Below, in pieces: positions 2,177-56,588 of a stretch of 64,000 nt of DNA (position 1 is its first letter; each line of letters begins with the position of its first letter). Location: contig CAKPLP010000003.1 in NCBI GenBank assembly GCA_934167695.1, positions 11,529-75,528 on the forward strand, given 5' to 3'. Source of the stretch: an uncultured Bacilli bacterium. GTDB lineage: Bacteria > Bacillota_I > Bacilli_A > RF39 > UBA660. A program made the position numbers and the translations under genes. Below the pieces are notes generated by a model, which was not told where the DNA came from, ran no database searches, and saw nothing but the letters and a program-made list of their open reading frames with translations.

Positions 2177-2498
2177 TTATTCTAGTTTAACTGATATTAT
2201 AAATTATATAAAGAATAGTGATGAATTTATAAAATGTAATGAACTTAAGAGTAGGATGTCTAAAGATGAGTCTTTATTGAAGATAATAGAAAATGTGAAA
2301 GTGTTGCAGAAAAAGTATATTAGGAGTCAATATGATGTTAATATAAAACAACAACTTGATGATGAAGTTAATTTATTAAACAGAAATGCTTTGTATTGTG
2401 AATATAACTATTATTTAGGAAAAGTTAATAATATGATTGACTTGGTACGTGATGAATTAAATAGATATTTTTCAGATGTAGTAGGAGAAGATTTTTAA
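2151..2498 (+). CDS. ymcA: YmcA/YlbF-family protein (Com_YlbF-like helical regulator)
   Basis: Small helical protein immediately downstream of and overlapping miaB. Same place as B. subtilis ymcA (miaB-ymcA-cotE synteny). Start uncertain; overlaps the miaB stop. Confidence 0.5.
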   Translation: MENYLNQNSYSSLTDIINYIKNSDEFIKCNELKSRMSKDESLLKIIENVKVLQKKYIRSQYDVNIKQQLDDEVNLLNRNALYCEYNYYLGKVNNMIDLVRDELNRYFSDVVGEDF

Positions 2499-2510
2499 TC
2501 TTCTTTTTTT
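2487..2510 (+). terminator. intrinsic terminator (GAAGAT-TTTTA-ATCTTC + T7)
   Basis: Perfect 6-bp stem overlapping the ymcA-like stop, followed by TTTTTTT. Confidence 0.55.
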
Positions 2511-2560
2511 GTATAGTTTTATCAAGTTAAAGCATAAACTAAATTAGAGGAGGGATTATA

Positions 2561-3088
2561 GTGTCAAATTATCGTGAAATTGTTACTAAAACGGTTATTG
2601 GTAAAGGTAAGAAAACTTTTACTACTACTAATAGAAAAACAGTAGAAAATACTCCTTCAACTATTTTAGGTTGTTGGATAATAAATCATAATTTTAAGGG
2701 GCAAAAAAATAATGATGTAGTTAATATTAATGGTAGTTATGATATTAACATTTGGTATTCTTATGATAATGATACTAAAACTGATGTTATTAAGCAAACT
2801 GATAATTATAATGAAAATGTTACAATTAAAAATACTGGTGATGTAATAAATGAAGAAATTATTGTTAGAAGTTTAAGACAACCTTCATGTGTTAAAGTTG
2901 ATATTGATGGAAAGGATATAGTTTATACTGTAGAAAAGGAACTTGGTATAGAATTAGTAGGGGATGAAAAAGTAAGAATAGAAACATCTGATACACTTGA
3001 TGATTGGGATGAAATAATTGATGATGTAGGAGATAAAATAGAGAATGAAGTAAAAGAAGATTATATAGAAGAAGATAAAACTATATAA
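2561..3088 (+). CDS. cotE: spore coat morphogenetic protein CotE
   Basis: N-terminus MSNYREIVTKTVIGKGKK...STILGCWIINH...YDINIWYSYDNDTKTDV closely parallels B. subtilis CotE (MSEYREIITKAVVAKGRK...ILGGWIINH...YDINVWYSY). Acidic C-terminal tail. Synteny miaB-ymcA-cotE. RBS GGAGGGA. Confidence 0.85.
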   Translation: MSNYREIVTKTVIGKGKKTFTTTNRKTVENTPSTILGCWIINHNFKGQKNNDVVNINGSYDINIWYSYDNDTKTDVIKQTDNYNENVTIKNTGDVINEEIIVRSLRQPSCVKVDIDGKDIVYTVEKELGIELVGDEKVRIETSDTLDDWDEIIDDVGDKIENEVKEDYIEEDKTI

Positions 3089-3146
3089 TTCTTTTTTTCT
3101 ATAGTTTTATGAGGCATATATGGAAGTTTTGGTTTATAAATAAATA

Positions 3147-3170
3147 GTGTCAACAAAAAAATGTTGACAC
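3147..3170. promoter_or_regulatory. perfect inverted repeat GTGTCAACA-A6-TGTTGACAC overlapping the rpsP -35 box (candidate operator)
   Basis: 9-bp arms read directly. The right arm contains TTGACA. Confidence 0.5.
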
Positions 3171-3192
3171 TTCTTTTTATCTATGTTATTAT
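3164..3192 (+). promoter_or_regulatory. sigma-A type promoter of rpsP: TTGACA-17-TATTAT with TGn extended -10
   Basis: TTGACA at 3164-3169, 17-nt spacer, TG at 3184-3185, TATTAT at 3187-3192. About 30 nt upstream of the rpsP RBS GAGGAGG. Confidence 0.6.
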
Positions 3193-3223
3193 AGTAACGA
3201 ATGTGAAAGAGGAGGAAATTTTT

Positions 3224-3499
3224 ATGGCAGTAAAAATTAGATTAACTAGAATGGGATCAAAAGGTCATCCTAGATATAGAATTGTTGCAACTGATTCTCG
3301 TGCTAGACGTGATGGACAATATTTAGAGTTAATTGGTAACTATTATCCATGTGATACAACTGAAACAAAAATTAATGAAGAAGTTGCATTAAAATGGTTA
3401 AGAACAGGTGCTATTCCTACTGATACAGTTAGAAGTTTATTTAGTAAAGCTGGTATCATGGAAAAGTTTGCTAAAGAAAAAAATAAGAAGGAAAAATAA
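3224..3499 (+). CDS. rpsP: 30S ribosomal protein S16
   Basis: [31 protein letters not shown] is the canonical S16 N-terminus. Strong RBS. The ORF-track start at 3161 is an upstream extension through the promoter. Confidence 0.95.
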
Positions 3500-3501
3500 T
3501 T

Positions 3502-3747
3502 ATGGATTTATTGGAATTAACAGAGACTATTATTAAGTCTTTAGTTAAGAATACTGAAAATATTGAGGTAAAAGAAGTAGTAGAAAAAAATGATTTAATA
3601 GAAATATTAGTTAAAGTTGATGAAGCTGATATGTCTAATATTATTGGTAGAGAAGGAAGAGTTATTAATGCTATTCGTACTCTAATTCAAGAAGCTAGTT
3701 CTTTAAGAGATAATAAATACGTAAAAATTGAAATAGAAAAGTTCTAG
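3502..3747 (+). CDS. khpA: KH-domain RNA-binding protein KhpA (YlqC-like)
   Basis: 81 aa. GxxG KH motif (IGREGRVINAIRTL). Immediately follows rpsP as in Bacillus (rpsP-ylqC). Confidence 0.8.
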   Translation: MDLLELTETIIKSLVKNTENIEVKEVVEKNDLIEILVKVDEADMSNIIGREGRVINAIRTLIQEASSLRDNKYVKIEIEKF

Positions 3748-3767
3748 AAGTCCTAGAACTTTTTTAT
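3741..3767. terminator. bidirectional intrinsic terminator (GTTCTAG-AAGTC-CTAGAAC + T-tract)
   Basis: Perfect 7-bp stem between convergent khpA (+) and the radical SAM gene (-). T6 on the + side, A-run on the other. Confidence 0.55.
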
Positions 3768-4660
3768 ATTCCTGTTAGGTCAAAGTCTGGAATAAAGCTG
3801 TCTTTAGCAGTATCTCCAATTTGCATGAAAGCATTTGTAATACCTAAATCACAGGCATAGTTTATTAATTTATTATAGTCACTTTCTTTTACCTTGTGAT
3901 TTAAACTTTCTATATTTTTTACTTGTTCTAATGGTGTATATTGGTTCATTATACTTATAAATATATTATCATGATAGGTTTTATATAGGTAATTTAATAT
4001 AGTTTTTGAATCATTTAAATTTTCTGGTAGCATGAGGTGTCTTACAATTACACCTTTTTTTAATATTCCAGATTTATCGAATTTTACTTTTCCTACTTGG
4101 TTATACATTTCTTTAATTGCATTTGTTGCAAATTCAAAGTAATTTGGTGCTTTAGAATATTTAATTGCAATGATTTCATCGTAATATTTTAAGTCTGGTA
4201 AATATATATCTATTAAACCATTTAATTTCTTTAATGTTTCAACTTTTTCATATCCACTACTATTATAAATAATTGGTATTGTTAATCCCTTTTTTTTGGC
4301 TATTTTTATAGCTTCAATTATTTGAGGAGTATAATGTGTTGGAGTAACTAGATTAATATTATGAGCTTTTTTTTCTTGGAGTTCTATCATTTTATTTGCC
4401 AACTCTTCTATAGAGATTTCTTTACCAAAATTATTAGTTGATATATTATAATTTTGACAGAATATACATTTCATATTACATCCTGAAAAAAATATAGTTC
4501 CAGATCCATTTGTACCTGAAATTGGAGGTTCTTCAAAATAGTGTAGACTAATTCTTGCTACCTTAACTTTAGAACTCATTCCACACAAACCTTTTTCTCC
4601 TTCATTTCTATTTACTTTACATTCTCTAGGACATATTTGACATTTTTCTAATTCTTTCAT
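3764..4660 (-). CDS. radical SAM protein, PflA/YjjW-like activating-enzyme family (COG1180; CxxCPxxC N-terminal motif)
   Basis: CQICPRECKVNR..GLCG N-terminal motif. SAM cluster GCNMKCIFCQN. EEPPISG motif. Start placed at MKELEKC with an AAAGGAAA RBS. The ORF-track start at 4699 is an extension. Confidence 0.7.
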   Translation of the reverse strand: MKELEKCQICPRECKVNRNEGEKGLCGMSSKVKVARISLHYFEEPPISGTNGSGTIFFSGCNMKCIFCQNYNISTNNFGKEISIEELANKMIELQEKKAHNINLVTPTHYTPQIIEAIKIAKKKGLTIPIIYNSSGYEKVETLKKLNGLIDIYLPDLKYYDEIIAIKYSKAPNYFEFATNAIKEMYNQVGKVKFDKSGILKKGVIVRHLMLPENLNDSKTILNYLYKTYHDNIFISIMNQYTPLEQVKNIESLNHKVKESDYNKLINYACDLGITNAFMQIGDTAKDSFIPDFDLTGI

Positions 4661-4774
4661 AAGTATTTCCTTTCTTTTCATATTATATATGTAAATCATT
4701 AATTTTAAAATACTTTTTCTTGTAGAAATATCTTCTTTGTTATATAATTGTTTTTAGATAAGATGGAGGGCAAT

Positions 4775-5575
4775 ATGAAAAAGAGAGTTTTAAGTGCTAT
4801 TATTATGTTACTTGTATTTATACCACTTTTATTTGTTGGAGGTAAAGTTTTTGCATTATTTATGTCTTTAACCGCTGTTTTAGGTTTATATGAACTTTTA
4901 AAAATCAAAGAAGCAAAGAAAAAATTACCTATTGTTATGAAAGTTATTTCTTATATAATTGTTGTTTTTATGTCTCTTAATAATATGGATGCTATAGATT
5001 TCCATTACATGATGGATTATAAAAATATTTCTATTATTATTTTTGGTTTTGTTGCACCATTGGTATTTATTAATGATAATAATAAATATAATATTAGTGA
5101 TGCTTTATATTTAATTGGATCTACTTTGTTTTTAGGATTTAGTTTTAATTTGATTATTATTACTCGTAATTATGATTTAATGTATATTATATATTTATTA
5201 CTTATATCTACTATAACTGATACATTTGCTCTTATTACGGGAAAATTAGTTGGTAAAACAAAACTTTGTCCTACGATTAGTCCTAATAAGACTGTTGAGG
5301 GAATGATTGGTGGAACAGTTATGGGTGTTTTTGTTGCTACTAGTTTTTATCATGTTTTTATGAATCCTAATTATTCTTTGGTATTTTTGATATTGATTAC
5401 TACTATGCTTTCATTAGTAGGGCAACTTGGAGATTTAGTATTTTCTATGATTAAGCGTTATTATAATAAGAAGGATTTTTCTAACTTAATTCCGGGGCAT
5501 GGTGGAGTTCTTGATAGATTGGATAGTTTGATTTTTATTGTTCTTGCTTTTATTTTAGTTATGGGAATTATATAA
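4775..5575 (+). CDS. cdsA: phosphatidate cytidylyltransferase CdsA
   Basis: Multi-TM protein. C-terminal CTP-transferase signature SMIKRYYNKKDFSNLIPGHGGVLDRLDS. GGAGGG RBS before ATG 4775. Confidence 0.85.
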   Translation: MKKRVLSAIIMLLVFIPLLFVGGKVFALFMSLTAVLGLYELLKIKEAKKKLPIVMKVISYIIVVFMSLNNMDAIDFHYMMDYKNISIIIFGFVAPLVFINDNNKYNISDALYLIGSTLFLGFSFNLIIITRNYDLMYIIYLLLISTITDTFALITGKLVGKTKLCPTISPNKTVEGMIGGTVMGVFVATSFYHVFMNPNYSLVFLILITTMLSLVGQLGDLVFSMIKRYYNKKDFSNLIPGHGGVLDRLDSLIFIVLAFILVMGII

Positions 5576-5585
5576 AGGAGGATTT

Positions 5586-6653
5586 ATGAATATATTAATT
5601 AATTTAATTTTATTTGTATTAATTTTAGGTGTTATAGTATTAATTCATGAATTTGGACACTTTTTATTTGCTAAACTAACAGGTGTTTATGTTTATGAAT
5701 TTTCTATTGGAATGGGTCCTAAAATATTTTGGCATAAACCAAAAAAGAGTGAAACGGAATATTCTATTAGATGTGTACCTATTGGCGGTTTTTGTGCTCT
5801 TGCTGGTGAAGATTTAGAAAATGATGATAAAAGTGTTCCTGATGATAGAAAGTTGCAAGCAAAAAAAGCTTGGCAGAGATTTCTTATTATGGTTATGGGA
5901 CCGGGGTTTAATTTCCTTTTAGCTTTAGTTTTATTATTTTTTGTAGCACTTATTTGGGGTGCTCCTATTATGAGCCCTAAAGTTTCTAGTGTAGAAAGTG
6001 GTTATCCTGCGTATGACGTTGGTATTAAAAAAGGTGATTTAATAACAGAAATAAATGGTCATAATATTAAAACTATTGATGATGTTAGTTTATATTTAAC
6101 TGTAGCATCTCCTAAAAATTCTACTACAATAAAAATTGTAAATGAGGATGGTGTTGAAAAACAATATCGTATTAAACCAAAAAAAGTAAAAGTTACTAAA
6201 AATAAAAAAACTTCTACAACATATCGTTATGGAATAGGGTTAAAAACTAAAAAAGAATATGGAATAGGTAAAGCATTTAATTATATGATAGTAAAAACAG
6301 GATCATTATTTAGACAAATGTTTGTAACTGTTGGTTATTTATTTACTGGAAGAATTTCAGTTAGTCAATTAAGTGGTCCGGTTGGTATTTATTCTATTGT
6401 TGGTGAACAGGCAAAAAGTGGAATTTCTAGTATACTTTATTTAATAGCATATTTAAGTATTAACGTAGGCTTTTTGAATTTACTTCCATTACCTGCATTT
6501 GATGGAGGACATATATTATTTATTATTATAGAAAAAATTAAAGGTTCTCCTGTAAAACCAGAATTTGAAAATAAAATTCATACTATTGGATTATATGCCT
6601 TATTAATTTTAATGTTGTTTATTACGGTTAATGATATTATAAGGTTATTTTAG
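5586..6653 (+). CDS. rseP: RIP site-2 metalloprotease RseP/RasP (M50 family, PDZ domain)
   Basis: HEFGHF zinc motif within TM1. Central PDZ-like region. C-terminal LNLLPLPAFDGGH motif. Follows cdsA as in Firmicutes. Confidence 0.85.
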   Translation: MNILINLILFVLILGVIVLIHEFGHFLFAKLTGVYVYEFSIGMGPKIFWHKPKKSETEYSIRCVPIGGFCALAGEDLENDDKSVPDDRKLQAKKAWQRFLIMVMGPGFNFLLALVLLFFVALIWGAPIMSPKVSSVESGYPAYDVGIKKGDLITEINGHNIKTIDDVSLYLTVASPKNSTTIKIVNEDGVEKQYRIKPKKVKVTKNKKTSTTYRYGIGLKTKKEYGIGKAFNYMIVKTGSLFRQMFVTVGYLFTGRISVSQLSGPVGIYSIVGEQAKSGISSILYLIAYLSINVGFLNLLPLPAFDGGHILFIIIEKIKGSPVKPEFENKIHTIGLYALLILMLFITVNDIIRLF

Positions 6654-46911: not shown

Positions 46912-47451
46912 ATGGAAAAGAAATCTCTAAAAAAAGAAAAGAATATGACTAAAAATTATTTTATTTTATTTTTTATAATTTTACTTACAGTATTATTTGT
47001 TTGGTATATTTGTAAGTGGTATCAAGTATATTCTGATTATCAAAAAGAAACTCCTGTTATTCGTGGTACTTTAAATTATGAAATAACTGGACTAGAGCTT
47101 GATCACTATATTATGGAAAATCCTAGTTGTGTTATTTATATGTGTACTTCAAGTAGTGATAGTTGCAGATCATTTGAAAAAGATTTTAAAAAGTTAATTG
47201 TGAAGAAAAATTTACAAAATAATATTATATATTTAAATTTAAGTGATGTTGATATTAATACTTTTGTTACTAACTTTAATGATAGTTATCATTATAAAAT
47301 AAAGCTTACAGAGAATTATCCGGCGATAGTAGAATTTACTGATGGTAAAGTTACTGGATTATTGGAGGGTACTACTGATAATCGTCTTACTATTACTAAA
47401 GTAGATCAGTTTATTGATTTACATCAAATTGGATTAGAAGAAGAAAGTTAA
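46912..47451 (+). CDS. hypothetical N-terminally anchored membrane protein (179 aa)
   Basis: TM YFILFFIILLTVLFVWYI. AGAGGAGTG RBS. No recognisable motif. Confidence 0.4.
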   Translation: MEKKSLKKEKNMTKNYFILFFIILLTVLFVWYICKWYQVYSDYQKETPVIRGTLNYEITGLELDHYIMENPSCVIYMCTSSSDSCRSFEKDFKKLIVKKNLQNNIIYLNLSDVDINTFVTNFNDSYHYKIKLTENYPAIVEFTDGKVTGLLEGTTDNRLTITKVDQFIDLHQIGLEEES

Positions 47452-47987: not shown

Positions 47988-48016
47988 AAAAATCGGTTTG
48001 TTTGCCGATTTTTATT
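47986..48016. terminator. bidirectional intrinsic terminator (AAATCGG-TTTGTTTG-CCGATTT)
   Basis: 7-bp stem flanked by an A-run and a T-run, between convergent trmL (+) and the thioredoxin-like gene (-). Confidence 0.6.
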
Positions 48017-48419
48017 TTATATATTTTAATTTTTTTAATGTGTTTTTTAATTTTTTATCACTAATAGAACCTGTGATTCGGCTACTAACAATTTCTTTTC
48101 CCTTATTGAAAAACATTGTAGTAGGAGTTCCTTCAAATGTATATTTTTCATTAAACTTATTGTAATCGCTTTCTGAAATATAAGAAATATTTAAATTATA
48201 AGCTTCTAAATTATTATCTTTTAAAATAGTCTTTAATCTTGGTGTAAATTCTTCACAATGACTACAACCATCTTGAGTAATTTCTAATATAAATGTTTCT
48301 TTTTTATCTATCATATCTTTAATTTCATCATAGCTTACTCTTTTTAGTGTATTTTGACATCCTGTTAATAGTAAAATTGCTATTAAAAACAAGGGAATCT
48401 TTATAAATATCTTTTTCAT
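48012..48419 (-). CDS. thioredoxin-fold lipoprotein (CxxC = CSHC), extracytoplasmic thiol-disulfide oxidoreductase candidate
   Basis: Lipobox LLTGC. CSHCEEF active-site-like motif in a thioredoxin-like context (ITQDGCSHC). Confidence 0.65.
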   Translation of the reverse strand: MKKIFIKIPLFLIAILLLTGCQNTLKRVSYDEIKDMIDKKETFILEITQDGCSHCEEFTPRLKTILKDNNLEAYNLNISYISESDYNKFNEKYTFEGTPTTMFFNKGKEIVSSRITGSISDKKLKNTLKKLKYIK

Positions 48420-48520: not shown

Positions 48521-50086
48521 ATGATTTTTAGAAAACCTTATGCATTTTTAATTAAAAATTTTAGAAAGATTCATATTACAATTTTAGCGGCATGGCTTTT
48601 TATTTATTTTAAAGTCAATGATATAACTAGTTTTGTAAGTGAATTTATTGGGTTTGGTACTTATAGTTCTTCGTTAGAATCTTTTTCATCTAAGGTTGGT
48701 ATTTTATTTTATTTAGCTGTTATTTTTATTATAGTAAGTAGTTTATTATTACTTATACTATTAAAAAGAAAGGATAAGCCTTGGAAAGTATATCTTATTT
48801 ATATATTTGAATATGTATTATTACTTTTTGCAGTTATTTTTCTATCTGGATTTTTTTCTTCATATACAATTAATACTAATGTTAGTGGAGTATTAATATA
48901 TAGAGATATGTTAAACATATCTAAATATTTACAATATGTAGTTTTAGTTTTTTTAGTTATAAGAGTTTTGGGTATTGATCTTAAGAAATTTAATTTTAAG
49001 AATGATGAGGAATTTTTAGAGCTTAGTAGTGATGATAGAGAAGAGTTTGAGATTAGTTTTGATTTTGATAAGAATTCTATTAAAAGAGGATTTAATAGGT
49101 TTAAAAGAAATTTTAATTATTTTTATCGTGAGCATAAATTTATATGTGATATTTTTATGATTGGATGTTTGGTGTTTTTAATTGGATATTCTTATTATTA
49201 TTTTGGAATTGTTCATAAATCTTATAAGCAGGGAAAAACATTTAATTCTGGTATTTATAGTATTACTGTAAATGATAGTTATGTAACTAATAAAGATTAT
49301 GCTGGTAATAGTATAGAGAAAGGTTATAAATTTGTTATTGTAAAGGTTAGTATAAAAAATAATTATAATAAAACTGTTGAACCTAATTTAGATAGATTTC
49401 ATTTAGTTAATAAAAATACTGAAAGATCATATTCTAGTTTTTATAACAGCTATTTTAAGGATCTTGGAGATGGTGCTGATGATGCTATTAAAATTAATAC
49501 TGGTAAGGAAAAATCTGTTTATTTAGTTTATAGAGTAAAGGGTGATCTTGATAATAAAAAGTTTGTATTATATTACCAAGAACTTGGAGGAAAACTTAGA
49601 AGTTATTTAAGAAAGATAAAACTAAATATTCAGGATGTTTCAGAAATTAAGGATGTTGGTGAATATAATAAGGGTGATAAAATAGATTTTAGTTATGTTT
49701 CTGGTACTAAAAAGAAAATTACTATTACTGATAGCGCTATTCAGTCTAGTTTTGCTTATCATAGATATTATTGTCCAACTTCTTCTATGTGTGGTGTGTA
49801 TGATGAAAATTTAACTGCTGAAGAGGGGAAACTTCTTTTAAAAATTTCTTTTGCTTCAAGTGATTTTGAAGGCGAAGATTTTATTGACTTTTCATCTAGT
49901 TATGGTAAAATTAAATATATAGATAATAAGGGTAAAACTCAATATGCAAGTATTAAAAATGCTATTAAAACGAATTATCAAGGCAAGGAAATTTTTATTA
50001 GTAGTGATGCTGATGTTTTGAATTCAGAAAAAATTTGGATAGAATATATCCTTAGAAACAAAAGATATGTTTTAAGAATAAAGTAA
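48521..50086 (+). CDS. hypothetical polytopic membrane protein with beta-rich extracellular C-terminal domain (521 aa)
   Basis: Four to five N-terminal TMs. The C-terminal 300 aa are hydrophilic with Cys. Confidence 0.45.
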   Translation: MIFRKPYAFLIKNFRKIHITILAAWLFIYFKVNDITSFVSEFIGFGTYSSSLESFSSKVGILFYLAVIFIIVSSLLLLILLKRKDKPWKVYLIYIFEYVLLLFAVIFLSGFFSSYTINTNVSGVLIYRDMLNISKYLQYVVLVFLVIRVLGIDLKKFNFKNDEEFLELSSDDREEFEISFDFDKNSIKRGFNRFKRNFNYFYREHKFICDIFMIGCLVFLIGYSYYYFGIVHKSYKQGKTFNSGIYSITVNDSYVTNKDYAGNSIEKGYKFVIVKVSIKNNYNKTVEPNLDRFHLVNKNTERSYSSFYNSYFKDLGDGADDAIKINTGKEKSVYLVYRVKGDLDNKKFVLYYQELGGKLRSYLRKIKLNIQDVSEIKDVGEYNKGDKIDFSYVSGTKKKITITDSAIQSSFAYHRYYCPTSSMCGVYDENLTAEEGKLLLKISFASSDFEGEDFIDFSSSYGKIKYIDNKGKTQYASIKNAIKTNYQGKEIFISSDADVLNSEKIWIEYILRNKRYVLRIK

Positions 50087-50101: not shown

Positions 50102-51871
50102 ATGGAAAAGAATAAGGTTAAAAAGAATGTAACTGTTATTATAATTGCACTTATAGTTATTATTGGTTTATGGCTTATTATTATTTATCCACTTATTAAA
50201 TTTAATGAAAATGAAAAAACTGTTATTAATGCCACTAAGAGGTATTTTGAAATTAATAGTAATAAACTTCCTAGAGAGGGTGATATAAAAACTATTTCTG
50301 TTGGTGATTTATTAGATCAAAAGTATATTACTGATTTGAGGACTGCCTATAATAATGATACTTGTGAAGCTAGAACTAGTTGGGTTAAGGTAAAGAAGGT
50401 AAATGGAGATTATAAATATTATGTTTATTTGAAATGCGGTATCTTTAGTTCTAATGTCGATCATGAAGGACCTGAGATTGTTCTTAATGGTGATGATAAA
50501 ATAGAAATAGAAAAAGGCGAGAAGTTTGTTGATCCGGGAGTTAAGAGTGTTAAAGATAATACAGATGGTAATATAGATTTAAAGAAGGTATATACAAAGG
50601 GTGAAGTTAATACTGATAAAGTTGGAACATATATAATTACTTATGGTGCTATAGATAGTTTTGAAAATAAGACTGAAGTTCAACGTAAGGTTATTGTTTC
50701 ACAAAGTTTATCTAATACCGTTGAAATTAATACAGATAAAGACAATATTTATAAGGGTGCTGTTCAAAATAATTATATAAGATTCTCTGGTCAACTATTT
50801 AGAATCGTTGGTTTGGATAGTAATGGTAATGTTAAGATTGTAAGTAATGAAGATATTGCTAGTGTAGATTATAAATCTGTTAATGATTGGTTAAATAATT
50901 ACTATTATAATAACCTTGCAAAAAGTTCAAGGAAATATGTTGTTACTAATTATGAATGGTGTAGTGATAGCGTTAGTAAAGATAAAGTTGATAGTGTTAA
51001 TAAGTGTAATAATAAAGAAATTAAACAAAATGTTGGACTTTTATCAATAAATGAGTATAATAGTAGCTTAAAGGAGGGGGAGAGTTACCTTTATACTAAT
51101 ACTATTAATTGGACAATGAATGCTTTGAATTCTAAAAAAGCTTGGACAACTAAAGATAATTTTATTGGAAAAACTTCTAAATATTTGGAATATAGTAGAA
51201 ATTATAATTTTAAGGTTAGACCTAGTTTGGTTTTGAAAAATGGTATTAAAATTAAATCTGGTGATGGAACAGTTGATAACCCATACGATATAGGTGATTT
51301 TAAGATTGCTAAGCCGGGTAGTAAAGTTTCTAAGAGATATAGCGGTGAATATATTAAATATGGTGGTAATTTATATCGCATTATAAATTCTGATAGTGAG
51401 GGTTATACAAAAGTTATTTCTATTTATAATTTAGCTGATTATACTACTACTTATGGAAGTGGAAATCAATATAATCCTAATAAAGCAGGTAACATTGCGT
51501 ATGTTATTGAAAATACAGTTAGTACTTATAATAAAGTTAGTATTTTTGCAAAACATCAAATAGAAGTTCCAATTTATAAAGGTATTGCTACTTATAGTGG
51601 TGAAAAAACAACAAAGAAATATAATGTTAAATTTAGTGCACCTAGTATGTATGAAATGTATAGTTCTTATTATGATTCTTTCTGGTATATAGAATCTTCT
51701 AAGCAAAGTGATATTAAATATGCTTCTAGTTATAACGGTACTGTTTACTTTGATATGGATGATATTACAGATATTAATACTCATATTATGTATACTGGAT
51801 ATATGAAAAAGACAAGCGTTATTATTAGTGGTAGTGGAACTATGAGTGATCCATATGAAGTAGATTATTAG
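50102..51871 (+). CDS. N-terminally anchored surface protein with DUF5011-type Ig-like domain
   Basis: TM VTVIIIALIVIIGLWLIIIY. EGPEIVLNGDDKIEIEKGEKFVDPGVKSVKDNTDGNIDL...VGTYIITYGAIDSFENKTEVQRKVIV matches the DUF5011 pattern. Disulfide-bounded segment CEARTSW...YLKC near the N-terminus. Confidence 0.55.
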   Translation: MEKNKVKKNVTVIIIALIVIIGLWLIIIYPLIKFNENEKTVINATKRYFEINSNKLPREGDIKTISVGDLLDQKYITDLRTAYNNDTCEARTSWVKVKKVNGDYKYYVYLKCGIFSSNVDHEGPEIVLNGDDKIEIEKGEKFVDPGVKSVKDNTDGNIDLKKVYTKGEVNTDKVGTYIITYGAIDSFENKTEVQRKVIVSQSLSNTVEINTDKDNIYKGAVQNNYIRFSGQLFRIVGLDSNGNVKIVSNEDIASVDYKSVNDWLNNYYYNNLAKSSRKYVVTNYEWCSDSVSKDKVDSVNKCNNKEIKQNVGLLSINEYNSSLKEGESYLYTNTINWTMNALNSKKAWTTKDNFIGKTSKYLEYSRNYNFKVRPSLVLKNGIKIKSGDGTVDNPYDIGDFKIAKPGSKVSKRYSGEYIKYGGNLYRIINSDSEGYTKVISIYNLADYTTTYGSGNQYNPNKAGNIAYVIENTVSTYNKVSIFAKHQIEVPIYKGIATYSGEKTTKKYNVKFSAPSMYEMYSSYYDSFWYIESSKQSDIKYASSYNGTVYFDMDDITDINTHIMYTGYMKKTSVIISGSGTMSDPYEVDY

Positions 51872-51887: not shown

Positions 51888-52697
51888 ATGAAAAAAAGTG
51901 TGAGAAGAAAAAAGAATATTATGAATAAGAAAATTATTATTTTACTAATTTTTCTTCTTGCTATTTTAGCATTATTATATCTGTTTAAACGATTAGATTT
52001 AAAACAGATTTTTGTTCCTATATATGAAGTGAGTGATAGGACAAGCAATGTTAAAAAAGCGAGTAAGAAATATAGTGATCAAGCTGATGTAGTTGGTTGG
52101 ATAAAAGTTCAGGGCACTAATATTGATTACCCTGTAGTTTATGAAGATGGTTCTACTACTGAAAGATATTCATTTAATTATGCTTGGATTAACAGAAATA
52201 ATAAAAAATTGACTAATAGACCAATTATCTTTAGTCATAATATTAGAAATGTTTCAAGTCAACCTCTCATAGGTGATAAGGAAATGGATCAGTTTGAACA
52301 GTTGATGTCATATATTTATTATAATTTCAATAAGGATAATAAATATATTCAATATACTGTTAATGGTAAGAATTATTTATATCAAATATTTTCTGTTTCT
52401 ATTGTTGATGATAATTTAATAGATTATTACGATACATCTTACACTAAAAAAGAAATGAAAAAATATATTAAAGAAAGTTTGAATGATAGTTATTTTAAAT
52501 ATGATGTTGATGTAAGTGAAGATGATAAAATTATTACCTTAGTTACATGTACAAGATTTGATGGAAAATTACTTAATGATTTTAAAATAGATGCAAAATT
52601 AATTGACAAAAATAAAGGGTATAACTATAATGTTTCTGAAAAGAAAAATTATGATTATGTTAAAAAAATATTAAAAGGAGATGGCAATGATGTATAA
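51888..52697 (+). CDS. srtB: class B sortase
   Basis: DVVGWIKVQGTNIDYPVV, catalytic His region IIFSHNIRN, TLVTCT catalytic Cys motif and the following basic segment parallel S. aureus SrtB. Start at MKKSVRR after AAGGTG. Confidence 0.75.
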   Translation: MKKSVRRKKNIMNKKIIILLIFLLAILALLYLFKRLDLKQIFVPIYEVSDRTSNVKKASKKYSDQADVVGWIKVQGTNIDYPVVYEDGSTTERYSFNYAWINRNNKKLTNRPIIFSHNIRNVSSQPLIGDKEMDQFEQLMSYIYYNFNKDNKYIQYTVNGKNYLYQIFSVSIVDDNLIDYYDTSYTKKEMKKYIKESLNDSYFKYDVDVSEDDKIITLVTCTRFDGKLLNDFKIDAKLIDKNKGYNYNVSEKKNYDYVKKILKGDGNDV

Positions 52698-55600
52698 AGA
52701 TATGATTAAAAAGTGGGTTGGAATGTTATTTGTACTAGCCATTTGTGTTACTTTTTCAGTATTTGATGTTGATGCGAAGAGTACATGTACTAAAAGTGCT
52801 GCTAAAAAGTATTATAATGTTAGAATAGTAAGAAATGGAACTGATGATAAAACTGATTCTATAACTGTTAAAGCAAGTAATGGAAAATTTTATTTGAAAC
52901 TTGTTTCTTATGATAGTAATTTAACAAAAGAACAAATTGCAAAAGATAGTACTATTCCTGTTATTAATTCTACTAGTCCTCTTGTAGGTGGTAAGAGTTA
53001 TAAAATTACTAATAGCCAATTAAGAAATTATTATGATGGTGATGGTGCTTTAGCTGTTAAAATTGTAGCGATATTTGATTCTAATACTGAGGATGATAAA
53101 GATGCAGTGTGTGATGGTGATGATAAGTATATTAGAATGATTACTTATAGTGAACAGTTAGATGATGATAAAAGTACTACATCTTATAATGTTTCTGGTA
53201 ATACTCAAGGATGTATTGATCTAAATAATTTTATAAAGAGTCATTCTGATTATTTTGATTCAAAAATGTTAGATATTTCAAAATCTATTTTACCATCATG
53301 TTTTAATCAAAAAGTAACTTACAATGTTAGTGATGATACAATAGCAATATTAGAAAAAGAAATAGAGAAAATATATAATAATTATAAGAAATATAAAAAG
53401 AATACTGGTGATAGTGGTAATTTTGATGTTGAACTTCAAAAATTAAAAACTTTATCTTCTGATTGGATAGAAATAAAGAAGAAAAATAAAGCAAATCACC
53501 TAACCATTTCTGATAATACAGATAAAACATATAAAAAATTAGGTTCTAATAGTAGCAGTATGTTAACTTGTAGTACTAAAAATGAACGTGTTGAAACTAA
53601 ATTATTCTATATAAATGAAGAAAAAAATACTATTGATTATACTATCGGTGATGGTAGTGTTGGTTCTAAAGTAAAAAAGGATAATGTTGATGTATGTACA
53701 ACTGTTTGTAGAGAAAAGGTATCAATTTCATATGGTCCTCCGGTTGCAGTTGTCGCTGGCCAATGTTTTACATATGAAGTAGAAGTTAAGAGTAACGTTG
53801 AATGTATTGCTCAAGTTAATTATGATGTTTTCCCTAAATTTTCAGATTTTGAACCTTGTACAATATATGGTAGTTGTATAACTTCAGCAGGTCACGAACT
53901 TACTGGTTATAATGAACAAGCTGGTCCAACTGAAGACTTTGATAGTTGTGTAAATAGTTGTGATGGTGGTAAATATAGTCAATCATGTATAAATTCTTGT
54001 TATTCAAAAGTTTATGAAAAATCAACTGATACAAAATCTACTACTAAAACAAGTAGTGCTGATAGTGATAATACTGATATTATTGGTTATGCTTTAGATA
54101 CTCTTAATATTTCTAATAATTCAAAAGTTAGTAAAGTTAAATGGAATGGTAGTAATAGAGTTACTAGTTATACTTTAGATTCTGCTTGTCCTTCTGCAAG
54201 TGCTAGCGTTGATGAAGTTTATAATTGGGTAAATAAAAATATTACTGGTAATTATACATCTGCAGGTGGTACTTTAACTTACCAACCAAAGAATGGTGGA
54301 TGTATTTGGAGTCGATACGGTTATGCATATTTTAGAACTAAACAATTAGCTGCAAGAACCGTTTGTAATGCTCAAGGATATAACTGGATAAGTGGTAGAG
54401 AAAACTGTGAATTTACAAGTAATCCTAATGCAGATAATTATGAATACTATGATAATTGTTTGGCTAGTCAAGGTTGCTATAAAGGTAGAATGAAGAGTGG
54501 ATATAGATGTAAAAATGGTTATGATATTAGTGATTCTAGATGTGAACGAGTAAATTATTATGGTAATTATTATAACCCAGAAAATGGATTTAAACGTCAA
54601 AATGGATGTAGTGAATCTTGTAAATGGAAAGTAAAAAATAATGGTACTTGTAAATATGTTGACAGAGAGAAAGCTGAAAAGGATTATATTAATTCTATCA
54701 AGAAAATTTATGAGGCTTTGGATGGATGTATGAGTAAGGCTGCTGCAACATGTAATACTTCTAATTCTGTTTCTTATACTATGTCTGCTAATACTGATAC
54801 TACTACAACAAATCAATCATGTACTAATGGTAACTATGAATCTAATGGTAATTGTATTGACAAGGATCAATGGTATAATCAATCTAAAACTAAACAAACA
54901 ACTGGAAAAGTTAATAATCTAGATTTAGCTCAAAATACTATTATTAAATTAAATGATGGTAAATGTTATCAAAATAAGAGTGAAGATAATATGTATCATG
55001 GTATTATTACTTTCCCTGGTGCTTGGATTAATAATAAGACTGGAAAAGTTACTTATAGGAAACCAGCTTCTGAAGAAGAAAAATGGTATACATCATATAC
55101 TGGTAATTATTGTACTCCATTAATTGCTAAAAATGTTAATGCTAATTGGTGGACATGGCATTATTACAATAAAACGGGTTCTATTACAAAAGAGTTTGAT
55201 CAATGGGAGTCAGCAGGAGATATTAAAAATATAGTTTATAATATCTTTAGTAAAATAAAGAACTTTGGTAAATATAATTGGAATATAAATACTGGTTGTT
55301 TCTATGCTATTAATAACTATACTGGTAAACCTTGTGATAGTAGTTCATCTAAATGTGATACTATAACTGATACTGAAGTTCCAGGTCCAGAACATTGTAC
55401 TAGTTCTAGTTGTCCTAAAAAAGATGACCAGCTAAAAGCTGAGAATAATTCTAAAGTTGATAATTATTCTTCTAAGTCTATTACTTCATCTAATTTATTC
55501 CCATCTACTAAAACTAGTTCTTTGACTGATAAAACAGTACCTGCTGTTAAATTAAGTTATGGTAAAAAAATGGCTGATACTAATTCATCTACTAGGTCTG

Positions 55601-56076
55601 AAGGATATAACTGGTCTGTTCAAGCAACTAATTTATCTGTTAAAAATTATCCAGTTACTCCTTCTTCACTAGTTAAGAAAATACAAGCTGGTAATACTTA
55701 TGTTGATTCAGAAATTGATTATGAATTTAAATTAACTAAAGAACAAATAAGTACTATTAAGAATGAATCTAAAAGTAGTACTAGTGATAAATTTTATATT
55801 AATTATGCTAATAATTATGTTAAGTTAAATAATAATGCTGATTATAAAAAGACATTCCAAAACTATAATTTAAATACAAATGATGTTGATGGTATAAGTT
55901 TTTATAAAAGTAATTACATTAGAAGTCATGCGACTAAAGTATATGCACCAGATGGAAATGCTTTAAAATGTAATAATTTAAAGCGAAATGGTTCAAATTA
56001 TAGTTGTGATATGTTAACTGATTATGTTAAGAGTGATTCTGAACTTCAAAGTTGGTTAAGCAAGGTAAATAGTTAA
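52687..56076 (+). CDS. large secreted Cys-rich protein (about 1130 aa), no recognisable domain
   Basis: Signal peptide (…VFDVDA|KS). More than 50 Cys, S/T/N-rich. No C-terminal sortase signal or TM visible. Confidence 0.55.
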   Translation: MMYKDMIKKWVGMLFVLAICVTFSVFDVDAKSTCTKSAAKKYYNVRIVRNGTDDKTDSITVKASNGKFYLKLVSYDSNLTKEQIAKDSTIPVINSTSPLVGGKSYKITNSQLRNYYDGDGALAVKIVAIFDSNTEDDKDAVCDGDDKYIRMITYSEQLDDDKSTTSYNVSGNTQGCIDLNNFIKSHSDYFDSKMLDISKSILPSCFNQKVTYNVSDDTIAILEKEIEKIYNNYKKYKKNTGDSGNFDVELQKLKTLSSDWIEIKKKNKANHLTISDNTDKTYKKLGSNSSSMLTCSTKNERVETKLFYINEEKNTIDYTIGDGSVGSKVKKDNVDVCTTVCREKVSISYGPPVAVVAGQCFTYEVEVKSNVECIAQVNYDVFPKFSDFEPCTIYGSCITSAGHELTGYNEQAGPTEDFDSCVNSCDGGKYSQSCINSCYSKVYEKSTDTKSTTKTSSADSDNTDIIGYALDTLNISNNSKVSKVKWNGSNRVTSYTLDSACPSASASVDEVYNWVNKNITGNYTSAGGTLTYQPKNGGCIWSRYGYAYFRTKQLAARTVCNAQGYNWISGRENCEFTSNPNADNYEYYDNCLASQGCYKGRMKSGYRCKNGYDISDSRCERVNYYGNYYNPENGFKRQNGCSESCKWKVKNNGTCKYVDREKAEKDYINSIKKIYEALDGCMSKAAATCNTSNSVSYTMSANTDTTTTNQSCTNGNYESNGNCIDKDQWYNQSKTKQTTGKVNNLDLAQNTIIKLNDGKCYQNKSEDNMYHGIITFPGAWINNKTGKVTYRKPASEEEKWYTSYTGNYCTPLIAKNVNANWWTWHYYNKTGSITKEFDQWESAGDIKNIVYNIFSKIKNFGKYNWNINTGCFYAINNYTGKPCDSSSSKCDTITDTEVPGPEHCTSSSCPKKDDQLKAENNSKVDNYSSKSITSSNLFPSTKTSSLTDKTVPAVKLSYGKKMADTNSSTRSEGYNWSVQATNLSVKNYPVTPSSLVKKIQAGNTYVDSEIDYEFKLTKEQISTIKNESKSSTSDKFYINYANNYVKLNNNADYKKTFQNYNLNTNDVDGISFYKSNYIRSHATKVYAPDGNALKCNNLKRNGSNYSCDMLTDYVKSDSELQSWLSKVNS

Positions 56077-56099: not shown

Positions 56100-56588
56100 A
56101 TGAATAAAGCGTTTTTGACTATTGGAATTATTTTAATGGCTATCTTGGGTTTCTATAGTATAAGTTTAGTAAGTAGCCAGCAATCTGGTTCTGAACTTGA
56201 TTATTACTTATTAAAAGAAACTACTGAGTCTGCTATGAATGATGCTGTTGATATGACTTATTATCGTCAATTTGGGGTTTTGAGGATGGATAAAGAAAAA
56301 TTTATGGAAAGCTTTATTAAAAGATTTGCAGTCAGTGTAGATGGTACTAGGGATTATGATATCAAAGTTTATGATATAAATGAGACACCTCCAAAGGTTA
56401 GTATTAGAATTAATTCTGATAAAGCAACTCAAACAATTAAAGGATTTGGTGGTACTAATAATATAGATATTACTACTAATGCTGATATGATTCTTGAAGA
56501 TAATAATAAGACTAATGTTGGTGTTACTAATAAGAATATAGATTATATTAAAGCTTTGAAAATTAAAAGTGTTAATGATATAAAATAA
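56100..56588 (+). CDS. hypothetical N-terminally anchored protein (162 aa)
   Basis: N-terminal hydrophobic helix AFLTIGIILMAILGFYSISLV. GGAGGTG RBS. Located immediately upstream of the cpaB-like gene. Confidence 0.4.
   Translation: MNKAFLTIGIILMAILGFYSISLVSSQQSGSELDYYLLKETTESAMNDAVDMTYYRQFGVLRMDKEKFMESFIKRFAVSVDGTRDYDIKVYDINETPPKVSIRINSDKATQTIKGFGGTNNIDITTNADMILEDNNKTNVGVTNKNIDYIKALKIKSVNDIK

Follow-up and report, generated by a model that had tools for sequence, protein, structure and literature searches.

Sortase-dependent pili and type IV pili have been contrasted as separate solutions to filament building in Gram-positive bacteria (PMC3244431). Here we describe a gene for a class B-like sortase (51888-52697, forward strand) within a 64,000-nucleotide stretch of DNA from an uncultured Bacilli bacterium of the order RF39 (contig CAKPLP010000003.1 of assembly GCA_934167695.1, positions 11,529 to 75,528; the whole stretch is hereafter the window), where it keeps a fixed place in a Tad-like operon, with translational coupling and co-duplication of the gene with its neighbours. 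Automatic annotation already calls the family 'class B sortase', and the gene as such is known. Searches of the literature for sortases of RF39, or encoded at Tad or type IV secretion loci, brought up no account of the arrangement, and two of its features are undescribed in the literature that we found: the obligatory membership of the sortase in an RF39 type IV pilus/secretion supercluster, and the loss of the canonical catalytic Arg while the His, the Cys and a TCTR motif are kept.

The best sequence and structure matches of the protein are the class B enzymes of Staphylococcus aureus (SrtB/IsdC), Clostridioides difficile and Clostridium perfringens, with which it shares an N-terminal anchor, a GW..V.GTNIDYPV block, a GHN His region and a TL.TC Cys strand. 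Unlike these enzymes, the window sortase has an insertion after the His motif, a C-terminal extension and a replaced beta8 Arg, and it has neither a neighbour with an NPQTN- or (S/P)PxTG-type tail nor a haem-uptake context. The streptococcal pilus sortases (Spy0129; S. pneumoniae type II) are comparable in placing a class-B fold inside a pilus locus beside the proteins that are handled, but they polymerise pilins that carry (E/Q)VPTG-type signals and anchors, whereas the window has Tad-type ATPase machinery and no such neighbour. With Tad/Flp (type IVc) systems the locus has in common a TadA/CpaF ATPase, an RcpC/CpaB protein, a 50-aa hydrophobic pilin and two pseudopilin-like paralogues; it differs from them in that TadB/C, TadZ and TadV are not recognisable by sequence, in that the pilin lacks the G/xxxxEY motif, and in that the cluster adds four further genes (A, B, D and E) and the sortase, and is fused to a VirB4/VirD4 module. 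The only related report that we found is of a predicted Clostridial operon of Roseburia, Ruminococcus and Eubacterium (Miller et al. 2022, PMC9523054), which likewise holds a CpaF-type ATPase, a platform protein (PilC) and a DUF5411 protein, but which is described without a sortase.

The sortase gene, its anchor and its active-site codons lie as follows, where residue numbers are those of the 272-aa open reading frame (ORF) used in the alignments, and subtraction of 3 gives the numbering of the real 269-aa protein:

51888..52697, forward strand: sortase-fold gene, 269 aa, ATG start, N-terminal membrane anchor and predicted extracellular catalytic domain
about 51927-51986, forward strand: N-terminal membrane anchor of the sortase
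52236-52238, forward strand: codon of His120, the catalytic His
52548-52550, forward strand: codon of Cys224, the catalytic Cys
52554-52556, forward strand: codon of Arg226, invariant, two residues past the Cys
52578-52580, forward strand: codon of Asp234, which sits at the canonical beta8 Arg position
52584-52586, forward strand: codon of Lys236

The ORF list starts this gene at GTG 51879 and ends it at 52697 on the forward strand. An AAGGTG ribosome-binding site lies 8 nt upstream of ATG 51888, and this ATG is the start shared with all homologues and with the gene as called independently on L079, which is a contig from this organism (L numbers denote retrieved loci); the correct gene is therefore 51888-52697, as the first-pass annotation had given it. 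All three of the motifs quoted there are likewise present in the ORF, namely the N-terminal block DVVGWIKVQGTNIDYPVV at residues 69-86, IIFSHNIRN (with His120) and TLVTCT (with Cys224), and its assignment to the sortases, with class B as the closest class, is borne out by several comparisons. The Pfam Sortase family (PF04203) matches at 35.3 bits against a cut-off of 26.6; a phmmer search of the PDB returned the SrtBs of C. perfringens, C. difficile and S. aureus as top matches (E 2e-13 to 1e-10), and a profile of the sortase family improved upon this to E 7e-21. An AlphaFold2 model built from 36 homologues (mean pLDDT 88.7) was matched by Foldseek to class B sortases only at PDB ranks 1-19 (E 4e-15 to 8e-8, TM to target 0.58-0.80), with classes A, C, D and E appearing from rank 20 on; in all, 122 PDB sortase chains were found at E<=1e-3, and the matches include the streptococcal pilus sortases 3psq and 4y4q. 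The protein is thus a genuine sortase fold nearest to class B. It is also an atypical SrtB rather than a textbook one: the SrtB equivalog model TIGR03064 scores 68 bits, far under its cut-off of 153.75, and relative to the solved SrtBs 11 residues are inserted just past the His motif (HNIRN-VSSQPLIGDKEM-DQFEQL; consensus N.S..P.I.D), and there is a C-terminal extension of ~30 residues that is modelled with high confidence as a hairpin and a helix.

A family census by pattern scan, with one genome per species, placed the sortase family in 191 species-representative genomes, from which 78 loci were retrieved. Wherever the contig is long enough, these loci keep the gene order A-B-sortase-D-E-F(RcpC)-G(TadA)-H-I-J-K-L-M-N (the individual genes are listed further below). 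The stop of the sortase overlaps the start of D, a secreted Cys-rich protein, by 7-76 nt in 75 of the 76 loci in which the next gene is visible, and B ends no more than 26 nt upstream of the sortase in 75 of 78. Four genomes carry two sortase copies, and in each of these independent duplications D and E are duplicated along with it, with B included in one case. Writing C for the sortase, the arrangement is C-D-E followed by A-B-C-D-E-F in L035 (cassettes 2233-6445 and 9863-13898) and A-B-C-D-E-B-C-D-E-F in L032 (8120-14298 and 14449-20522); the duplicated cassettes of the metagenome-assembled genomes (MAGs) CAG:877 and HGM10852 are each split across two contigs. Within a genome the copies are 42-61% identical for the sortase, 48-63% for D, 56% for B and 98-100% for E, such that the sortase and D are divergent cassettes set between conserved sequence. 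From this divergence it follows that the sortase diversifies with D and is not a single generalist of the cell, and the contrast of near-identical E copies with diverged sortase and D copies points to an exchange of cassettes, or to gene conversion, with E as the anchor. Another locus, L026, has duplicate cassettes (3208-6457 and 10668-13898) of which the extra one is D-E; directly upstream of this extra D-E, at about 2350-3090, we note a canonical type IV prepilin gene (MKKINHNGFTLIELLAVIVIMGIL...), which takes the place where other genomes hold the extra sortase copy.

The reading that we favour, and to which we would give an even chance of being right, is that the protein is a machine-dedicated Cys-His enzyme that acts on a protein of its cassette (D, or else B or E) by way of a non-canonical signal and fixes it covalently. 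A membrane-anchored extracellular enzyme of class-B fold would, on this account, be a dedicated part of the RF39-type Tad-like pilus/type IV secretion supercluster, with the secreted Cys-rich D, translated from the overlapping start, as its first-choice target and the anchored proteins B and E as alternatives. Recognition would depend upon a signal other than the classical motif with membrane helix and basic tail; the reaction would link the target covalently to peptidoglycan or to another subunit of the apparatus, and the machine would as an outcome display a stably attached, fast-evolving surface module. We infer that the enzyme is extracellular (by the positive-inside rule) and catalytically competent, and likewise which substrate and which acceptor it uses. 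With regard to rates of evolution, D is the fastest protein in the cluster, with a median best-HSP (high-scoring segment pair) identity to the window of 28%, followed by K and L at 34-36% and by A, B and the sortase at 41-46%; the slowly evolving machinery retains 84% (TadA), 71% (H), 67% (I) and 61% (F).

The absence of a canonical substrate among the neighbours, as asserted by the first-pass annotation, held throughout the scans, which covered the window, the 78 orthologous loci with their flanks and 10-20 kb past the window end (sequence taken from L079 and from relatives such as L091) and in which every ORF was tested for a C-terminal hydrophobic stretch and basic tail, the P.T motif being optional. 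No protein of the cluster, in the window or at the 78 loci, has such a stretch and tail with or without P.T, and a P.T motif conserved near the C-terminus occurs in none of the conserved cluster proteins. The tail scan of the window yielded three unrelated membrane proteins only, all without the motif, and no NP(Q/K)T(N/G) or (S/P)PxTG substrate with hydrophobic segment and basic tail was found in the window, the 78 loci or the downstream module. The accompanying suggestion that a substrate might lie beyond the window was not borne out over the stretch that was scanned: the next ~20 kb are a type IV secretion module, and the 10-20 kb scanned downstream of the window end hold no sorting-signal protein.

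Several candidate signals within the cluster were considered and set aside. An (I/V/S/L)PVPT(N/A/S/D/G)E motif is invariant in F, ~35 residues before its C-terminus (57306-57320 in the window, F residues 231-235), and resembles the (E/Q)VPTG signals of streptococci; in the AlphaFold model it ends a confident beta strand (pLDDT ~85) with packed elements after it, and its position inside a folded domain makes cleavage there unlikely. The C-terminal G.GT...PY..K of B recurs inside B and lies within a DUF6273 match in a B-like paralogue, which marks it as a domain end; the C-termini of the pilin J are not conserved, and a conserved Thr is missing from the tail of the VirB2-like N. Two motifs are left as leads only. 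The most C-terminal of the conserved motifs in D, (P/L/I)G(V/C)NN (window 55980-56076 and orthologues), often stands 0-6 residues from the C-terminus and in other species is followed by a Cys-containing tail of up to ~35 residues; it could be a processing tag or a plain domain end, and it has no Thr and no precedent. In the DUF5411 protein E, residues 96-100 (PPKVS, window 56385-56399) are invariant, and their Pro-Lys faintly recalls the YPKN pilin motif, the Lys of which is the nucleophile in sortase-built pili.

According to review, a His-Cys-Arg triad is found in all sortases (PMC8225981). In our alignments His120 and Cys224 are invariant (alignments A1 and A3), as are His120, Cys224 and Arg226 across alignments that cover 40-99% identity, and all 199 family members carry L.TCTR. 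The beta8 Arg of S. aureus SrtB (R233) falls opposite Asp234 both by hhalign, in which the family profile was compared with S. aureus SrtB, and in a separate MAFFT alignment that included outgroup sortases. The aligned range of S. aureus SrtB in the hhalign comparison agrees with that of the PDB match 1ng5. In the canonical Arg column only 10 of the 199 members have Arg, the remainder having mostly Thr, Asp, Ser or Glu, and ~92% have Lys or Arg two residues past the lost Arg, at a position that shares its face of beta8. The first-pass annotation had called the protein a class B sortase unless its His/Cys/Arg triad should prove lost on alignment, and the triad is incomplete: the His and the Cys stand, the Arg does not. 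The strict assignment is weakened accordingly. Sortase-like action is not thereby refuted, the nucleophile and the general acid/base being absolutely conserved. In the structure of S. aureus SrtB the residue two past the Cys (Asp225) neighbours the catalytic His; by analogy, the invariant Arg226 could plausibly assume the role of the lost Arg, and Arg226 together with the frequent Lys236 are possible substitutes for it.

It may also be postulated that transpeptidation has been lost altogether, and that the protein now serves as a processing protease or chaperone for D, or as a structural subunit of the envelope-spanning apparatus. The disappearance of the canonical Arg from ~95% of members and the want of sorting signals agree with such a view, and the post-His insertion and the ~30-residue C-terminal extension could form new interaction surfaces. 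The invariance of His120, Cys224 and Arg226 is nonetheless hard to explain without catalysis, and the retention of Lys or Arg two residues past the lost Arg in the great majority of members speaks against it also; we judge this alternative unlikely.

Several observations weigh against a machine-dedicated enzyme with a non-canonical signal, and should be stated together. With the canonical Arg absent, transpeptidase activity is, as judged from sequence, not assured. No conserved sorting-like motif was found in D, B or E, the very proteins proposed as targets. The substrate scans encompassed loci and their surroundings, so classical substrates elsewhere in the genomes are possible. Co-variation is supportive but weak: with species divergence taken out by regression of the pairwise distances among 49 species against an average over F, G, H and I, the residuals of the sortase correlated best with those of D (partial r 0.36) and B (0.25), neither of which was reached in any of 2000 label permutations, and less with those of A, K and L (0.13-0.18) or, at about 0, with those of E, F, G and M; the signal is modest, and the residuals of D also track those of B, K, L and E. 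Last, the flanks of the 78 loci contain one classical signal, in a 441-aa protein with a weak DUF7601 match (L006, 11-1336) that ends in SPVTG, a helix and RYSKTKKSKS and lies 9 kb upstream of the operon sortase, with no further sortase within 10 kb of it.

This last protein also bears on the view that the enzyme is a general housekeeping sortase, that its classical substrates are scattered in the genome, and that its place in the operon is a historical accident, in which case we would be dealing with an ordinary annotation at an unusual address. There is precedent for it, as C. difficile SrtB is a housekeeping enzyme that recognises SPxTG/PPxTG (PMC8225981) and srtA/B orthologues are retained in RF39, where peptidoglycan is predicted in most members (PMC10868615). 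The nearest outgroup is in keeping with it as well. A full HMMER run against 1.84 billion representatives returned 122 proteins below 1e-30, and a next tier at 115-155 bits to the family profile consists of longer sortases that have in common with the family the TCTR, an N.S..P.IG insertion after the His and part of the C-terminal extension. These stand-alone TCTR sortases of Oscillospiraceae and other Clostridia differ in that they retain the canonical Arg (QRFVVMA), in their long Ser/Glu-rich linkers and in their gene context: the two outgroup genes with long contigs are monocistronic and stand among housekeeping genes, one of them (WRS27071.1, from an Oscillospiraceae isolate genome and annotated as a class B sortase) adjoining hrcA-grpE-dnaK-dnaJ and the other (a MAG protein) a class A PBP (penicillin-binding protein). 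Since the outgroup is stand-alone and keeps its Arg, the operon-embedded, Arg-less form is the derived state.

Set against a housekeeping role are the invariant place between B and D with its overlapping stop and start, the duplication of the sortase only in company with D and E, the divergence of the resulting copies, and the count of one classical signal in roughly 1 Mb of non-cluster flanking DNA. A further argument comes from L008, where a second, small sortase-domain gene (2584-3228) lies directly upstream of a secreted 353-aa protein (3231-4292) that ends in IIPPNTGID, just before an intrinsic terminator, and has no membrane helix or basic tail; its homologues in L010, L060 and L066 have neither the extra sortase nor the PPNTGID tail. 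The presence of a separate sortase beside the PPNTG protein argues that the operon sortase is not general-purpose. It would appear that a (P)P.TG-type reaction in this lineage brings its own enzyme, and that substrates here may lack a classical membrane anchor. Taken together, we hold a housekeeping role to be rather improbable.

Returning to the machine-dedicated enzyme, a more specific version of it would have the sortase attach D, as a swappable, fast-evolving Cys-rich adhesin, either to the wall around the machine or to a membrane-helix protein (E, B, K or L) that acts as a pilin-like carrier, via an unprecedented signal and without the beta8 Arg. We regard this version as decidedly doubtful; if true, it would link sortase chemistry mechanistically to type IV filaments for the first time, and would do so in an order that is uncultured and has genomes of ~1.4 Mb. 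In more general terms, the sortase is here a fixed part of a type IV-type machine in gut bacteria that are not known from culture. Should it be active, it would represent a sortase clade that manages without the 'universal' Arg and would imply a class of substrates without the classical signal, which would alter genome searches for sortase substrates; it would also offer a handle on the attachment of RF39 bacteria to partners or hosts. The association and the active-site change would surprise a specialist in sortases or pili, while the function is one that we infer.

The remaining genes of the cluster, to the window end, are as follows:

48521..50086, forward strand: gene A, polytopic membrane protein with extracellular DUF4352, first gene of the conserved cluster
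50102..51871, forward strand: gene B, N-terminally anchored surface protein with Ig-like PF16403 (ex-DUF5011) and two repeats ending G.GT...PY
52681..56076, forward strand: gene D, 1131-aa secreted Cys-rich orphan, the start of which overlaps the sortase stop by 17 nt
56100..56588, forward strand: gene E, DUF5411 protein with N-terminal membrane helix
56616..57422, forward strand: gene F, RcpC/CpaB homologue (Tad pilus alignment-complex protein)
57458..58885, forward strand: gene G, TadA/CpaF/VirB11-type secretion ATPase
58909-59802, forward strand: gene H, highly conserved membrane protein in TadB/TadC position
59802-60590, forward strand: gene I, highly conserved membrane protein in TadB/TadC position
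60661-60813, forward strand: gene J, 50-aa hydrophobic Flp-like pilin with conserved N-terminus MK(A/E)A(T/S)GELN(L/M)TV
60825-61277, forward strand: gene K, TadE-like pseudopilin candidate, paralogue of L
61301-61774, forward strand: gene L, TadE-like pseudopilin candidate, paralogue of K
61791..62768, forward strand: gene M, conserved 325-aa cytoplasmic protein in TadZ position, no family match
62831-63184, forward strand: gene N, two-helix VirB2-like protein, first of the type IV secretion module (62831..64000 within the window)
5' part up to 64000, forward strand: paralogue of N, 267-270 aa, which runs off the window

The first-pass annotation had also entertained a role in pilus or adhesin polymerisation with a non-canonical signal. 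The direction of that suggestion is right; a pilus polymerised by the sortase itself is not supported, given the TadA ATPase, the RcpC homologue and the Flp-like pilin. That annotation did not recognise how firmly the sortase gene is tied to this operon by position, coupling and duplication. The ATPase G matches T2SSE at 95.9 bits, with its TIGR03819 and VirB11 matches under the equivalog cut-offs, and F matches Pfam RcpC at 30.2 against a cut-off of 28.8, its model having the Tad alignment complex RcpC (9gzr) as top Foldseek match (E 2e-10). Searches with E and F returned close RF39 relatives only. H, I and M fit TadB, TadC and TadZ in position and size and have no family or PDB match; H and I show no T2SSF similarity by sequence, so that their TadB/TadC assignment is one of position only, and profiles of H and M found nothing in the PDB. 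J is without the Flp G/xxxxEY motif. D, for which searches of the PDB and Pfam gave no match, carries 23-51 Cys in every species. A regex search, confined to the pattern G(G/A/M)GD(V/I/A/L/F)K in all frames of the window and loci, found no TadV-type prepilin peptidase signature, and such a gene may be located elsewhere. The sortase was considered as a stand-in for this peptidase and rejected, as the positive-inside rule places its catalytic domain outside the cell, away from the cytoplasmic face where prepilin leaders are removed. Within the 3' end of the sortase gene, at 52603-52631 and ~50 nt before the start of D, lies a perfect sigma-70 consensus (TTGACA-17-TATAAT, 12/12); it is not conserved, the best match at that place in 78 other species being no more than 10/12, equal to that of a control region.

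Beyond the window, L079 continues the module that begins with N, in the form of VirB6/TrbL-like, VirB3-like and TraC-like proteins, VirB4, a glucosaminidase/peptidase and VirD4 (L079 11041-20978; L091 11834-20515), as identified by precomputed Pfam matches (L079-L084) and matches to NCBIfam Mbov_0396/0397 families. With VirB4, a VirB6-like protein, a cell-wall hydrolase and VirD4, the adjacent module has the components by which a Gram-positive type IV secretion system is recognised. In L091 it ends in VirD4 and a B-like paralogue, followed by rmuC, and no relaxase or integrase is present up to rmuC. VirB4 proteins 72-93% identical were found on 80 metagenome contigs, and when metagenomes were scanned with the 261-aa gene that follows the hydrolase, no matches came up.

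Cyclisation of the TrbC pilin depends upon TraF, and by analogy it might be asked whether the sortase trims or joins the extracellular termini of the VirB2-like N and of the 270-aa paralogue as a step in their maturation. Both ends of the two-helix N are on the outside, and joining such termini is possible in principle by sortase chemistry; N also has conserved Cys residues, one in the N-terminal tail (C.GL.P) and one in a C-terminal W..CW, both predicted outside the cell, and the latter motif is preceded by a loose (D/N)T.(G/S/N). The Thr of that motif is not conserved and is absent from the N of the window, however, and the sortase lies 10 kb away, coupled to D, with duplications that never take in N. 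Maturation of N by the sortase would thus seem highly improbable. The conserved Cys at both ends of N suggest a disulfide that joins the termini.

The window around the cluster is populated by genes of the core chromosome (MiaB, CotE, CdsA, RseP, PriA, Fmt, RlmN, PP2C, a PASTA kinase, RsgA and Rpe), and the same housekeeping genes, a U32 peptidase, a PedC-like protein and SpoU, often lie upstream of the cluster. Judged by these surroundings, the secretion module has the look of a vertically inherited, chromosomal system for secretion or DNA transfer and not of a mobile element. The host genomes of the 78 loci are nearly all from uncultured gut bacteria labelled 'Bacilli', 'Tenericutes', 'Mycoplasma sp. 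CAG:877', 'Clostridium sp. CAG:417' or Candidatus Faecimonas. The last of these corresponds to the GTDB genus CAG-877 of order RF39 and has a genome of ~1.4 Mb with 28% G+C (PMC8035907), and the G+C content of the window (22-32%) is in keeping with that value. Despite the 'Tenericutes/Mycoplasma' labels of related MAGs, the host is walled and probably spore-forming, as indicated by the PASTA-domain Ser/Thr kinase (16499-18313) and the CotE spore-coat protein (2561-3088) of the window, together with the glucosaminidase of the cluster. Between priA and fmt we also note a 407-aa protein (8990-10213) with no family match and no sorting motif, which has a C-terminal membrane helix ending in IIKALGR.

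Beside the start of the cluster are two thioredoxin-type proteins, secreted or lipoprotein, one DUF6568/PedC-like (46912-47451, forward strand) and the other a CSHC thioredoxin with a lipobox (48012-48419, reverse strand). Synteny of the PedC-like gene extends to at least 13 loci, and these flanking proteins may serve disulfide formation in D.

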